The notes under the pieces: generated by a model
Database searches by the model: none
What the model was told of the DNA's origin: nothing
What the model saw: the letters and a program-made list of their open reading frames with translations, nothing else
Position numbers and translations under genes: made by a program
Source of the DNA: Pelagomonas calceolata
Taxonomy: Eukaryota
Assembly (NCBI GenBank): GCA_918797485.1
Contig: CAKKNE010000002.1
Location: 5,208,001-5,272,000, forward strand
DNA: 64,000 bases
Reading direction: 5' to 3'
Shown: positions 9,193 through 13,939 of the stretch, in pieces
Numbering within the stretch: position 1 is the first letter of the stretch
Layout: each line of letters begins with the position of its first letter

Positions 9193-11352
9193 TTAGGTCT
9201 TGTCCGGCCGCCCCTGCATGGCCCACCGGATTTCTCGAGGCATCAACCCCAAGAACTGGTCCATCTCTCCCTCAAGCATGCCGACGTCTGTCCACATGCG
9301 CTTGGCGATGGCCTTGTTATTCGTCTGCTGGTTGATGGCCTTGACGCGCTGCAGCTCCTCCAGCGTCACGCGCGGCGGCCGGTAGTCCCGCGGCAATCCC
9401 TTGAGGGTAGGAAAGCGCGTGATCACGGGCGCGTCGAGCTTCTCGATCAGACGAGGCAGGTCGGGCTGGTAGTTCGAGCCCCGCCGCGCCCGAGCGAGGG
9501 ACTTGAGAGTTCGAGTAGATACTCGAGACCCGAGCGAGGACGTCGTGCCGTAGGACAGGCCCGTCAGACTACTTCTAACGGAACTCGAATCATCAGGGGC
9601 CTTCTTCTTGTGCCTCCTATGTTTGGCCCGCTGCTTGTGCGCTCTCGAGAGCAGTCTTTTCACATCTCTATAGGACTGCCCACCGGCGGAAGACTGCCTA
9701 CATACGGAATGGTCGCTCTCCAAATCAGCCTTGATGGCGTCGAGGAAGGCCTTCTCGCCCTTCGCGCCGTACTGCGGGCCCGTCCGCTGGGACGACAGGT
9801 GCTGGAGTTGCGCCGAGAATTTTTTGTTTTGCCCTGTAGTAGAAACCAAGCCACCGATGTCCGTGTGCCGCGCTGTGGCTCGCTCGATGGCAGCATCAGA
9901 GGCGGCCTCCGGGTCGTAGATACTTAGGTCTGGTTCGCAGACGCGGCCCCGTCCGGCACCCAGTAAAGCCCCGCCGAAACACAAGACGACAGGCTTCGTG
10001 AACGTCCCCGACCGGCGGCCAGGCACATGCAAAGCTAGGATATGCCCTCTGCGAGGCGCCGGGGGGAACTCGCGGTAGCAAAAGTCGACGGGCGGCGCCT
10101 CCGGTTGAGGCGGCGGCGTCTTGCTTCTTCCCCTCCGTTTACCCTTCCTCCTCATGCGTTTCTTTTCCCTTTTCTGAGCTTCGACCGATTGGGTCGGTAA
10201 GGCCGCGATCTGCTTCTGGTGGGCCTGGTGGTGCTCCCGCGGCAGGCGCGCGTAGGGCCCGAGCTTCATGTCGTCGGTTGGTCGGTAGCCGTCGCAGGGC
10301 GCCACGCGCCACCCGCACAGGTCCGGTCGTTCGTCACCAAACAACTTCAGCACCCTTACGTCGTCATCACCCGTCGAACCGCCGAACACCAAAATTTCAT
10401 TTGATCGAGCCCCGAGACACGCCGCGTGGCCGTACAAGCGAGGCGACTCGTCAATCTCGTGCGTCGTCGGGATCTTGGACCAACATAATGTATCGACGTT
10501 CCACGCTAATACGTCTCTCAAACCTGGTGGTTCTCTATTCTGGATCGAGGCCGAGATATTGGCTAATCCACCAATAACGATCAGATGCCTTTCTACGAGT
10601 ACGGACTGGTGCTCGAACCGTTTCGGAGGGTGTTCCCCGCTACATAAACCTGAGAGTTCCGCCCAGGCGCCTCGCACGGGATCAAAGGACCACACTTGAC
10701 CCAATACACACTCGAAGCCTCGACCACCGGCATCCGGACCGGCCCCGCCGATGACAATAATAAAACCTCGCGCTGGATTCACGGTCGCCGGCTCGTAGTC
10801 CTCGTCGCCGCCTCTCGCTGCCTCCGCGTCTCGCTGCGAGGCCGTGCTTTGCGCGATCATCCGCGAATCTCTTATCAGAGTCGCCGTGTGGCCTCGTCGC
10901 GGCGTCGGCCACCGCCCTTGTATTGGGTAGGTGGACCAGGCCTCCTTCGTGAGGTCGAAAGTCGACACATCATTCAGGGTCTGGCGGAGTTGCAACATGC
11001 GCACGACGGGCTGCCCTTCTCGTCTTTGATCATCATTGACCTCCTTCCGCCAGTCGATGGAGTTGCGGCCTTCGCCCTGGCCCGCAAAACACACTAATTT
11101 ATTATCGCCCGTACAGGTCAGCGTGTGCTGGCTTCGAGCGGCGACGCGACTCTTGCGCGGGCCGTCTTTTATGGACCATCGTAACGTTCGCAAGTCCAAA
11201 GCCCATAATAAAGCTCTCCGCTGACTCGCGTCGGCCCCCTGGCCGCCGCCGCCGTGCAAATACAGCGTGTCGCGCGTACAGCAGTGGGCGGCCTGGTAGC
11301 GGCAGGGCGGCGCGAGGGTCTCGACGTTCAGCGGGCGGGCCCAGGCGGCCAT
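9193..11352 (-). CDS. Kelch-repeat protein with a low-complexity C-terminus
   Basis: Repeats PPCRYQAAH..LYLHGG, ARSQHTL..FAG, PTPRRGHTAT..VIGG, PPKRFEHQSV..VIGG, PRLYGHAA..VFGG, PAPRRGH..CFGG. Confidence 0.85.
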   Translation of the reverse strand: MAAWARPLNVETLAPPCRYQAAHCCTRDTLYLHGGGGQGADASQRRALLWALDLRTLRWSIKDGPRKSRVAARSQHTLTCTGDNKLVCFAGQGEGRNSIDWRKEVNDDQRREGQPVVRMLQLRQTLNDVSTFDLTKEAWSTYPIQGRWPTPRRGHTATLIRDSRMIAQSTASQRDAEAARGGDEDYEPATVNPARGFIIVIGGAGPDAGGRGFECVLGQVWSFDPVRGAWAELSGLCSGEHPPKRFEHQSVLVERHLIVIGGLANISASIQNREPPGLRDVLAWNVDTLCWSKIPTTHEIDESPRLYGHAACLGARSNEILVFGGSTGDDDVRVLKLFGDERPDLCGWRVAPCDGYRPTDDMKLGPYARLPREHHQAHQKQIAALPTQSVEAQKREKKRMRRKGKRRGRSKTPPPQPEAPPVDFCYREFPPAPRRGHILALHVPGRRSGTFTKPVVLCFGGALLGAGRGRVCEPDLSIYDPEAASDAAIERATARHTDIGGLVSTTGQNKKFSAQLQHLSSQRTGPQYGAKGEKAFLDAIKADLESDHSVCRQSSAGGQSYRDVKRLLSRAHKQRAKHRRHKKKAPDDSSSVRSSLTGLSYGTTSSLGSRVSTRTLKSLARARRGSNYQPDLPRLIEKLDAPVITRFPTLKGLPRDYRPPRVTLEELQRVKAINQQTNNKAIAKRMWTDVGMLEGEMDQFLGLMPREIRWAMQGRPDKT

Positions 11353-11623
11353 GTTGTGGTGTACCAGCTCGTCCGAGGCTGCCCGAGCCACGCTTCGGCT
11401 GCGTACAGCGGCACACAGCGTGATGCAGCGCCGCTTCGTCAAGAGCGTTGGGTTGTGCGGGGGTGAGTCCGACGCGTGACTTGCCTTGACCATCGATGAG
11501 AGTAGTCCTCCGAGAGTGCATATTGGTCTAAGAGATGTCCGATCGTCGATTCGGAAGGGCCTCTCTGTGGCAGGCAGAGGCAGAGCTTCATAATCGCGAG
11601 TGCTTTTGAGTGGGTTAAGCAGC

Positions 11624-13879
11624 ATGGCGAGCCTCAGGCTTGCAATCGCAGCTTCTTTGAAAGAACAACAAGCTCCAACCGCGATTACAGCAGCGCCGGA
11701 GCCCGAGAGGCCGCAGAGCAAGGCTGCCAAGGGTAAGGCTCTCCCTGGTAAAGCTGCCAAGTCGTCGCCGCCGCCACAGCGCAAGCGCGGCAAAGAAGCT
11801 ACGACACCCGTCGCTCCGCCGCCCAAACGGAGCAAGCCGAAGACCAGTGCTGCACCGAAAGCTGCCAAGGCGGAGCCGGCGCCACCGCGCACGGACAAAG
11901 AAGCGCCGAAGCCGGCCGCTCCGCGCAAGCGGAGCCCGCCCGCGGCCGCGCCGGCGCCGCGCAAGCGCGACAAGAAGCTCGCCGTGGCCGTCGGAGATAA
12001 TGTAGACGCGCTCTGGCCCGCCGACGGCGAGTACTATCCCGCGAAAGTGCGAGCCGTCAACGCCGACGGCACCATTGCTTTAGATTATGCGGACGGCGAC
12101 CGGCGGAACGACGCCACGACCAGCGAGCTGCGGTGCAAGAGACAAGCGACCGCCGAGGCGGACCCGGACTTCGCGCCCGCGGCGCTTTCAACAGCCGACG
12201 CGCCCGCCACCCGCAGCACGATCACGGACAAGAAGGCCTTGGAGGAACGCATGGCCGCCGATGGCTGGACCAAGGAGGAGAAGGCGCGCGAGAGTTCTAG
12301 TCATGTCGACAAATACTGGATCGACCCGAAGGATGGCAAGAAGTGTAGATCGATTGTAGAAGTCGCGCGCAAGGCCTACCCCGAACTACTAGAGGAGGCG
12401 CCGCAACGACCAAAAAAAGAAGCCGAAACGGGCCCGCTCGCCTGCAGAAAAGGATGCGGCCGCTGCTTCGGCAACGGTGGCGCGCGCGGCTCGCACGAGC
12501 TCCACTGCGACGGCACGCCGAAGCCGCCGCGGCGCCGCCGCCCCGTCGCCGTGGCGAAGCGCGACAAGCTACCCTCGCGTAGAGCCACTAATACAGATGC
12601 GCTGAAGGCCTCATCAACGGAGGACGCTTTACCATTACCGCCGCCGCCGCCCCGAGAACGCGCGAAGAATCATGATGTGGATCTCGGGGCCTTTGGCTGG
12701 ACGCCACCAAGTGAACCGCCGTCGTTCGAGCGGACATATTCATTGTTGAAAGCGGTCGAGGTGCCGCGGACGCATAGTAGGGAGAACATCACTTTGCCCG
12801 AGGACGAAGCGACAGGTGTTAGATCCGCCTGCGTCGGTCTCGTGGGCGCGCGGAGCCATGGTGTGGTTGCGTCGCAATTTGCTCGCTCCAGACCGTCACT
12901 AACGAGGGAGCTCGTGCGGTTTGGAAGGCACTTCCTCCCGTCCAGTTTCAAGTTCACGTCGATCCAGTTAAATCACAACTTCGCGTCGGCACTGCACGTC
13001 GACGATTATAATTCCGGGCCGTCCTACATCGTCGGTCTTGGTGGTTATGAAGGTGGGGAATTGTGGACTTTGGAACATGGGCCTTTGAACTGTAAACATA
13101 GTTTCTGCCACTACGACGGGACGGAGCCGCACGCGACGCTCCCTTTCACGGGGGAAAGGTACACGCTCGTCTTCTTCACGCACCAGACGCATCCTAGGTT
13201 AGGTGATGCGGACCGAGCCTACCTGGAGAGCCTCGGGTTTCCCCTACCGAAGCCGACGGAGTTGTTACGTCGGAGACAGAAGAAGGGCTTTGCCCATGGC
13301 ACTTCTTTTGAAGCGCCGAAGCGCGTGAAGACGGCGGCCGGGCAAGCGGCCTTGGACGCGCACAGGGCGGGCGCGTCCGTAGATGCGGCGAGGGCCCGAG
13401 GCGACGCGGTCTTCGAGGCCTGGCGGAAGGAAGATGCAAGGGAAGCGACGCCGGAGCAGCGGGCGATCCAGGGTCGCGTTTTTATTGATGATGGGACACG
13501 ATGGCGTGTTAGAGATGAAAAGAAGCGGGGCGTGTATTACGACCTCGAGCTGAAACAACTCTGCGTCGAGTACTACGACTTCGACGCGTATGGGATGAAT
13601 GATCCCGGTTCGGGAGATGATGTGGTCGAGTTCACGCCTTATGATGAGTTATTGGGGTTTGCGGACTGGGTCGACGCGCCGGAATCACTGTCGGGTAGTG
13701 CTCTGGAGGCGGCGAAGGCCGAGGCGGCGCGGCGGCTGGACGCGAAAAGGGCGTTTGAAGCCGCCGACGACGCGATGGACTACTACGCGGAGAAAGATGC
13801 AAAGGAGGCGGCGGCGGCGGCGAAGGCCGCGGCGGAGGCGCCCTTCCAACCGGTCTTAGTCCAGTTCGATCAACGGTAA
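11624..13879 (+). CDS. Multidomain chromatin protein: Tudor + MBD-like + zinc finger + TET/JBP-like 2OG-Fe(II) dioxygenase
   Basis: Tudor VGDNVDALWPADGEYYPAKV...LDYADGD; MBD-like GWTKEEKAR...VDKYWIDPKDGKKCRS; CRKGCGRCF...SHELHC; dioxygenase HVDDYN...YEGGEL...HATLPF..ERYTLVFFTH. Confidence 0.8.
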   Translation: MASLRLAIAASLKEQQAPTAITAAPEPERPQSKAAKGKALPGKAAKSSPPPQRKRGKEATTPVAPPPKRSKPKTSAAPKAAKAEPAPPRTDKEAPKPAAPRKRSPPAAAPAPRKRDKKLAVAVGDNVDALWPADGEYYPAKVRAVNADGTIALDYADGDRRNDATTSELRCKRQATAEADPDFAPAALSTADAPATRSTITDKKALEERMAADGWTKEEKARESSSHVDKYWIDPKDGKKCRSIVEVARKAYPELLEEAPQRPKKEAETGPLACRKGCGRCFGNGGARGSHELHCDGTPKPPRRRRPVAVAKRDKLPSRRATNTDALKASSTEDALPLPPPPPRERAKNHDVDLGAFGWTPPSEPPSFERTYSLLKAVEVPRTHSRENITLPEDEATGVRSACVGLVGARSHGVVASQFARSRPSLTRELVRFGRHFLPSSFKFTSIQLNHNFASALHVDDYNSGPSYIVGLGGYEGGELWTLEHGPLNCKHSFCHYDGTEPHATLPFTGERYTLVFFTHQTHPRLGDADRAYLESLGFPLPKPTELLRRRQKKGFAHGTSFEAPKRVKTAAGQAALDAHRAGASVDAARARGDAVFEAWRKEDAREATPEQRAIQGRVFIDDGTRWRVRDEKKRGVYYDLELKQLCVEYYDFDAYGMNDPGSGDDVVEFTPYDELLGFADWVDAPESLSGSALEAAKAEAARRLDAKRAFEAADDAMDYYAEKDAKEAAAAAKAAAEAPFQPVLVQFDQR

Positions 13880-13939
13880 GGTGGCGGCGGCGGCGTCTTC
13901 GTAGCGCTAGTTAATTAATATACATCTAGTATTATCAGG

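Follow-up and report, generated by a model that had tools for sequence, protein, structure and literature searches.

A candidate methyl-CG reader fused to a minimal TET/JBP-like dioxygenase in the pelagophyte Pelagomonas calceolata

A reader-dioxygenase fusion in Pelagomonas calceolata

A 64,000-nucleotide stretch of the Pelagomonas calceolata genome (contig CAKKNE010000002.1, positions 5,208,001 to 5,272,000 of the forward strand; hereafter the window) carries a single-exon gene, P0001, whose product joins a predicted Tudor domain, a predicted methyl-CpG-binding domain (MBD) and a putative zinc finger to a small 2-oxoglutarate (2OG)-Fe(II) dioxygenase resembling the TET/JBP enzymes. Judged from its sequence and a structural model, P0001 would be a TET/JBP-like dioxygenase that binds methylated CG (mCG) in chromatin and oxidises 5-methylcytosine (5mC) to 5-hydroxymethylcytosine (5hmC) or further, a reading to which we give a probability of about one half. 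That the protein is nuclear, bound to DNA and oxidises a 5-methylpyrimidine is probable. The fuller picture is tentative, at somewhat less than even odds: a pelagophyte reader and oxidiser in one chain would convert linker mCG laid down by DNMT5 into oxidised, possibly glycosylated cytosine, with its enzyme belonging to a clade of 180-residue mini-TETs shared with giant viruses.

The gene runs on the forward strand from an ATG at 11624 to a TAA at 13879 and is stop-free over 751 codons, in agreement with the single open reading frame (ORF) of about 750 amino acids described in the initial annotation. It is intact, and its transcripts show no intron. Contigs of two runs from separate studies, both taken as RNA by guess, cover 11600–13889 without a gap or joint (metatranscriptome runs with a share below 0.2 were left out). 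One contig of run X6 spans 12007–13889 with zero mismatches and thereby links the latter half of the Tudor domain with the MBD, the finger, the enzyme and the C-terminal parts; its overlap with the 5′ contig lies at a short repeat branch. The presence of reader and enzyme on joined transcripts, on which the proposed fusion depends, is borne out by these RNA-type contigs. Contig depth is 0 at 11444–11554, between P0001 and a kelch-repeat gene, as expected if the contigs are RNA. Sense-strand polyA raw reads (6% of the reads of each run, from one sample) reach a depth of about 1–18 over 12776–13885 and 0–3 upstream, and a few opposite-strand polyA reads lie at 11555–11887 in run X21; since the 5′ depth is thin and some reads are on the opposite strand, the raw reads alone are no proof of one full-length molecule. 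A frameshift or assembly chimera is ruled out by the gap-free contigs of two RNA-type studies, together with the same domain order in independent relatives.

Catalytic domain

The catalytic domain (12716–13255, forward strand; about 180 residues) is predicted to be a minimal TET/JBP-like 2OG-Fe(II) dioxygenase by its model, fold searches, alignment and signature. The fold that had been placed at about 12820–13200 is present, but it begins some 100 bases earlier, at 12716, and takes in the conserved R386. The HxDxxN motif (12995), the distal His (13130) and the R-x5-F-x-H end (13157) are all found where they had been located. H458, D460 and H503 are predicted to bind iron, R512 and probably R386 to bind 2OG, and N463, F518 and H520 to form the base pocket. 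Of 175 domains taken for alignment, 32 were removed because they were covered only in part or carried long inserts. Across the 143 trimmed domains that remain, D460, H503 and R512 are invariant, H458 is conserved in 142, N450 in 138, R386 in 134 and N463 in 133 (with D in 8), and position 518 is aromatic throughout. This near-invariance of the iron and 2OG residues argues that the domain is not a product of chance. R386 falls near position 1260 of TET2, whose R1261 binds C1 of 2OG, by aligned ranges rather than by residue-level superposition. The model, built from 95 sequences (pLDDT 94.5, pTM 0.90), has the double-stranded beta-helix (DSBH) fold which, with the HxD...H triad and the 2OG Arg, assigns the domain by structure prediction and alignment to the 2OG-Fe(II) dioxygenase superfamily. 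It has no Pfam match of its own, in the whole protein or cut out. In the ESM Atlas it finds 30 unnamed matches up to 0.97, viral where recorded, the nearest named ones being PF13640 (0.91) and PF12851 (0.89).

In each of four fold searches the first place goes to TET enzymes, with AlkB and PKHD hydroxylases close behind. In Foldseek CcTet occupies ranks 1–10, and the E-values of a Burkholderia oxygenase, PiuC and ABH2 differ from it by no more than sevenfold; viral JBP1/TET entries lead the BFVD search (E 3e-9, against 1e-6 for AlkB-like entries); and a search of 48,161 chains is led by NgTET1 (Z 11.4, root-mean-square deviation 3.2, 153 aligned) and TET2 (Z 10.5, 164 aligned), with the best non-TET chains at Z 10.0 and 9.9. 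In a Pfam search of 95 clade members at E ≤ 1, Tet_JBP is matched by 21 and 2OG-FeII_Oxy_3 by three, and the AlkB model is not among the 25 families listed.

The feature that discriminates TET/JBP enzymes at the sequence level is the stretch TS-x3-N-x7-HxD-x2-N, which is common, at exact spacing, to P0001 and six of six phage TET/JBP enzymes and is lacking in AlkB and YbiX. The last strand reads R-x5-R in E. coli AlkB and R-x5-aromatic in E. coli YbiX, as in P0001, so that the R-x5-aromatic end, taken in the initial annotation as a TET/JBP trait, excludes AlkB but not hydroxylases of the PKHD or prolyl type. The PKHD N-R-Y strand before HxD is absent from P0001, and PF13640 gives no match. The clade profile aligns with a profile of the phage TET/JBP enzymes at E 7e-5 over 120 columns in HHalign. 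Scored against the clade profile, five of the six phage enzymes exceed YbiX, AlkB has −2 bits (E 0.45 as a single sequence in HHalign), and phage Cooper gp2, which we take to be a TET/JBP enzyme, falls below YbiX. Cooper gp2 itself stays under the Tet_JBP cut-off (26.6 against 34.9 bits), which makes this a strict test. The P0001 enzyme is thus one that, by sequence and model, would work like TET/JBP and is at most a putative member of that family: the TET/JBP-like nature originally proposed is upheld by the fold searches and the signature, but the structural lead is narrow and the Pfam cut-off is missed.

Reader domains

The Tudor domain (11981–12133, forward strand) reaches the Pfam SMN_Tudor cut-off of 22.7 bits when cut out (22.7 bits; 17.6 in the whole protein). 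Its best match in the PDB is the PHF20L1 Tudor domain (E 0.004), to which its W, YY and D align, in keeping with the Tudor-like barrel first noted at about 11985–12130. W131, Y138, Y155 and D157 would fall at aromatic-cage positions by the numbering of 53BP1/PHF20.

The MBD (12254–12382, forward strand) passes the Pfam MBD cut-off of 21 bits when cut out (22.4 bits; 17.4 in the whole protein), and its best PDB match is AtMBD6 (E 0.001). In alignments with MeCP2 and AtMBD6, R222, D229, Y231, R242 and E246 correspond by spacing to MeCP2 R111, D121, Y123, R133 and E137, the methyl-CpG-reading set (PMC8811898); loop L1 is three residues shorter than in MeCP2. All four methyl-CpG-reading residues, the two Arg fingers, the Asp and the Tyr, are kept. 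With the cut-off passed and these residues intact, the MBD-like domain suggested at about 12260–12385 stands. A zinc finger of the form C274-x3-C278-x12-H291-x3-C295 is predicted from the sequence at 12443–12508 (forward strand), where a Cys/His finger had been expected; it has no Pfam match and is kept only in the closest relatives, P0002, P0009 and P0011.

Orthologues

The nearest named relative is Aureococcus anophagefferens (69–73% identity). Eight orthologue rows share a C-terminal barrel and form a clade (SH-aLRT 99) in a quick tree without an outgroup, which holds clade members only. An MBD-like stretch occurs in six of the eight, with the Asp and Tyr only in the P0001 lineage; both Arg are kept in Aureococcus AURANDRAFT_61875, annotated as an ‘MBD domain-containing protein’. 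Tudor domain and finger are confined to the closest relatives, and P0009 has both without an MBD. This patchy distribution suggests that the full architecture is recent and labile, with the enzyme and the barrel as its stable core. H520 is kept in seven of eight orthologues, against 29 of 125 other cellular rows and one of ten viral rows; as it is retained within one lineage, it counts as one event. P0051, outside the orthologue clade, has a strong MBD (47 bits, all four residues), which from its sequence is probably an independent fusion.

The wider clade and its partners

Residues 365–560 of P0001 match 2,565 clusters at E ≤ 0.001 and 747 at 1e-10. The clade members, drawn from the best 150 of the 2,565 clusters, belong to protists and giant viruses and lie below the Pfam threshold. 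Most of the 148 relatives scanned for partner domains have no second domain match; across the clade, which also takes in algae, the partners are numerous and interchangeable, and some are RNA-related. A TAGT domain is found in four (one over the cut-off), PTM/DIR17 Tudor and ILEI in seven each, and MBD, chromo, HMG, SNF2, PCIF1 and RsmB in one or two each; one further relative is fused to a pseudouridine synthase. The TAGT-dioxygenase fusions (P0110, P0083, P0136 and P0142) are eukaryote-sourced or unnamed, and P0110, from a Picozoa cell, combines dioxygenase, TAGT, 5-hydroxymethyluracil (5hmU)-DNA-kinase helical and N6/N4 methylase domains in one chain. In Aureococcus, the misleadingly named P0176, P0182 and P0059 represent at least two more paralogue types, dioxygenase with ILEI and PCIF1 with dioxygenase.

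Fifteen viral loci, several of them labelled giant-virus capsid or GVMAG, carry a stand-alone dioxygenase. Among 38 viral proteins scanned, a subset of the ORFs, a divergent TAGT gene is found at three of the 15 loci and Ploopntkinase3 at seven (fused in three, adjacent in four), and five have neither; because many loci are near-duplicates, these counts amount to about two lineages per partner. At L012:5263-6516, L014, L016:4861-6081 and L017–L020 the dioxygenase and Ploopntkinase3 come directly after the major capsid gene; such giant-virus loci may encode a route to hypermodified thymine in algal viruses. At L011:1293-2593, L013:692-1921 and L015:4485-5817, on AT-rich viral contigs, the divergent TAGT/dioxygenase gene pair lies near a D5-type primase-helicase, and is a candidate pathway to base J-like or glycosylated hydroxymethylcytosine marks. 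The fusions and adjacency with TAGT and P-loop kinases suggest base modification as the business of the clade, and by analogy this gene context of viruses and other relatives is the best evidence that points to its members modifying DNA bases. The base-hypermodification partners (TAGT, P-loop kinase, methylases) occur in relatives, not within the P0001 gene. P0001 alone as query matched no viral locus and no phage record, the sequences of alignment A2 diverge too far to yield search patterns, and a pattern search with alignment A3 found no prokaryote genome locus among its 76 matches, which, the pattern being exact, is weak evidence of absence. Searches with P0180 (15-residue matches only) and P0136 (only the TAGT part matched) were not used.

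Proposed function and alternatives

In the proposed mechanism, the MBD would dock on one mCG and the small catalytic domain, which is without most of the DNA-gripping inserts of animal TETs, would flip a nearby 5mC, with the Tudor barrels adding nucleosome contacts. 5mC is favoured over thymine (T) because of the mCG-reading MBD, the TET2-like pocket spacing and the H520 that marks the orthologues. Counted from H1382 and R1896, which we take as the TET2 anchor positions, the spacing of N463, F518 and H520 is that of TET2 N1387, Y1902 and H1904. These TET2 residues read 5mC (PMC11804724). The target would be DNMT5-type linker methylation, which has been reported in Aureococcus (PMC9998398), with DNMT5a reported for pelagophytes (PMC9998398, PMC3145265), and the product might be an intermediate in erasure or a group on which a glycosyltransferase could act. 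In mammals, Mbd1 boosts Tet1 (PMC5499542).

Several observations weigh against 5mC oxidation by a TET/JBP-like P0001. The TETs lead the non-TET chains by only 1.4 Z in one search, and by 0.8 Z, a tie, in a second; no clade member reaches the Tet_JBP cut-off (PF12851, 34.9 bits), the relatives scoring at most 23.6 bits. As a single sequence against the clade profile, YbiX (HHalign E 0.0055) does better than Cooper gp2 (E 0.15), and the viral dioxygenases match 2OG-FeII_Oxy_3 in 11 of 12 cases, four of which pass, with scores higher than for Tet_JBP (shown for four). The pocket residues are a poor guide to the substrate (PMC8256090, PMC11804724), and HxDxxN is found in T-type phage enzymes as well. 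The scan of 38 viral proteins turned up no C5 methylase, and the P-loop kinase that partners the viral enzymes is linked to thymine modification (PMC13229309). Finally, the MBD is missing in two of eight orthologues, and its Asp and Tyr are absent in Aureococcus and others.

A JBP-like thymine hydroxylase, recruited by the MBD to methylated DNA and turning nearby T into 5hmU, perhaps glycosylated to a base J-like mark, is doubtful. The viral relatives pair with TAGT or with Ploopntkinase3; the latter also accompanies phage Cooper gp2 (E 4e-71) and T-dioxygenases, and P-loop kinases are tied to thymine hypermodification (PMC13229309, PMC8256090); one relative also has a 5hmU-DNA-kinase domain, dinoflagellate TET/JBP homologues make 5hmU (PMC11572971), and an Asn in the HxDxxN position increases the oxidation of T by NgTET1 (PMC11804724). 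The orthologue group, however, keeps H520, unlike the viral forms. One TET/JBP clade has shifted to RNA (PMC4738411), and among the relatives of P0001 the dioxygenase is joined to an RsmB/NSUN methylase in Polarella, to PCIF1 in Aureococcus and to a pseudouridine synthase; the RsmB fusion belongs to the group that is sister to the orthologues (SH-aLRT 86–89). An RNA base oxidase (acting, for example, on 5-methylcytosine in RNA, m5C), held on chromatin by the MBD and Tudor domains, is nonetheless rather unlikely, as P0001 contains no domain that binds or modifies RNA, the DNA-reading residues of its MBD are intact, and the viral context is one of DNA modification.

It is improbable that P0001 is a protein or small-molecule hydroxylase of the prolyl/PKHD type, acting for instance on histones and merely resembling TET. 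PiuC is the sole PDB sequence match of the family profile (E 0.2) and reaches Z 9.5–10 in structure searches, where PHD has Z 9.2, and the YbiX match and the four of 12 viral members that pass 2OG-FeII_Oxy_3 point the same way; yet YbiX is without the TS-x3-N-x7-HxD-x2-N signature, links with TAGT, P-loop kinase and methylase recur, and TETs head every fold search. Very improbable is an AlkB-like N-demethylase, an eraser of N6-methyladenine (6mA) or an alkyl-repair enzyme, comparable to CcTet acting on 6mA. CcTet, solved with 6mA DNA, does head the Foldseek list, ALKBH3/FTO reach Z 9.9–10.6, and N6/N4 methylase and PCIF1 fusions occur among the relatives, but the second Arg of AlkB is absent, with an aromatic residue in 143 of 143 domains, and AlkB fares poorly against the family profile (the −2 bits and E 0.45 given above).

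Other features of the protein and the locus

The protein begins with a short N-terminal helix (11633–11665, forward strand), and a similar start is found in seven of nine rows of alignment A1. The UIM-like start of the initial annotation survives as this helix motif at 11633, but Pfam UIM has no match in P0001 (best E 0.23, in the orthologue P0010) and a UIM is unproven. A Pro/Ala/Lys-rich low-complexity stretch follows (11666–11968, forward strand), whose basic clusters are, from their composition, possible nuclear signals. Downstream of the enzyme lies a predicted SH3/Tudor-like beta barrel (13439–13687, forward strand), found only in the orthologue group and folded from 13 sequences with a pLDDT of 87. 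Its best structure matches are middling (DUF1653, Z 6.6; Spindlin-4, Z 5.9), Foldseek gives no match at E ≤ 0.001, and its Atlas lead is the PTM/DIR17 Tudor (0.76); what had been described as a further aromatic, beta-rich domain can be specified as this barrel. A long C-terminal helix (13694–13807, forward strand) is conserved in the orthologues.

The kelch-repeat gene (9193–11352, reverse strand) lies head to head with P0001, their starts being about 270 bases apart. This neighbour and a polysaccharide deacetylase appear unrelated to P0001. Two stretches of the gene, 12005–12036 at the contig branch inside the Tudor domain and 13805–13839 at loose ends near the 3′ end, are common to other transcribed loci, which suggests recent domain copying; a second copy of either is absent within the window. 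CG is over-represented in the window (observed/expected 1.34). Its 160–170 bp period of 1.62, of the kind expected under linker methylation, is marginal (reached by three of 60 shuffles) and is not used as evidence.

Implications

If P0001 does oxidise 5mC, stramenopiles would have an undescribed epigenetic base or an active demethylation route, and the question addressed is how algae remove or remodel dense DNMT5-type linker methylation. As a single-exon gene of 751 amino acids with a natural MBD-oxidase fusion, it is directly testable. The clade is large (2,565 clusters), goes unseen by Pfam and in giant viruses has ties with glycosyltransferases and kinases, which suggests that base modification could be common among marine plankton and their viruses. 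A catalytic domain of 180 residues would also make a very small TET-like tool.

Comparison with known systems

NgTET1, human TET2 and CcTet (TET/JBP, PF12851) are the top structure matches of P0001 and share with it the DSBH fold, the HxD...H triad, the 2OG Arg and the Asn/aromatic/His spacing of the base pocket. In contrast to these enzymes, the P0001 domain has about 180 residues, 14–19% identity and no Pfam match, and it is without a Cys-rich insert or CXXC, so that targeting would fall to the MBD, Tudor, finger and second barrel. Chlamydomonas CMD1, which uses vitamin C, is a weaker structural match (Z 8.1). CMD1 and the dinoflagellate thymine hydroxylases CryTJ1/AmpTJ1 (PMC11572971) are likewise divergent algal TET/JBP homologues, with activity shown on DNA; CryTJ1 has HRD where P0001 has HVD. 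The phage 5-methylpyrimidine dioxygenases (Cooper gp2 group; clade C1 in PMC13229309) have the same signature spacing and R-x5-aromatic end, and the same Ploopntkinase3 partner as the giant-virus relatives. P0001 differs from this group in being shorter, eukaryotic, without a ParB partner and fused to chromatin readers, and its profile similarity to them is only E 7e-5.

MeCP2 and AtMBD6 share their methyl-CpG-reading residues with the P0001 MBD. Mammalian MBD4 and the Mbd1-Tet1 pair resemble P0001 in coupling an MBD to a DNA-editing enzyme, but in MBD4 the MBD is fused to a glycosylase and Mbd1-Tet1 works in trans, whereas P0001 carries MBD and oxidase in a single chain. TET/JBP proteins have repeatedly been fused to chromatin domains (PMC4738411). 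The accessible parts of PMC2938197, PMC3417536, PMC10538959 and PMC11065753 do not mention the P0001 protein. The literature searched, which covers few subscription journals, yielded neither a study of a TET from a pelagophyte or fused to an MBD nor a characterised stramenopile TET.

Iyer et al. in 2009 reportedly described an algal TET/JBP-related family of many architectures, some joined to pseudouridine synthase or RNA methylases, and saw it as mainly RNA-modifying; we know of no experiment on it. The P0001 clade has the same two kinds of fusion and was probably predicted there, and the Aureococcus MBD fusion may already have been drawn by Iyer et al. in 2009 or 2013. That the architecture was not recognised as characterised in the initial annotation agrees with the lack of any study found, but the Aureococcus model, annotated as an MBD protein, already shows the MBD fusion, and the Aravind group probably anticipated fusions of this kind. 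P0001 is a new architecture on a probably predicted branch of TET/JBP-like enzymes.

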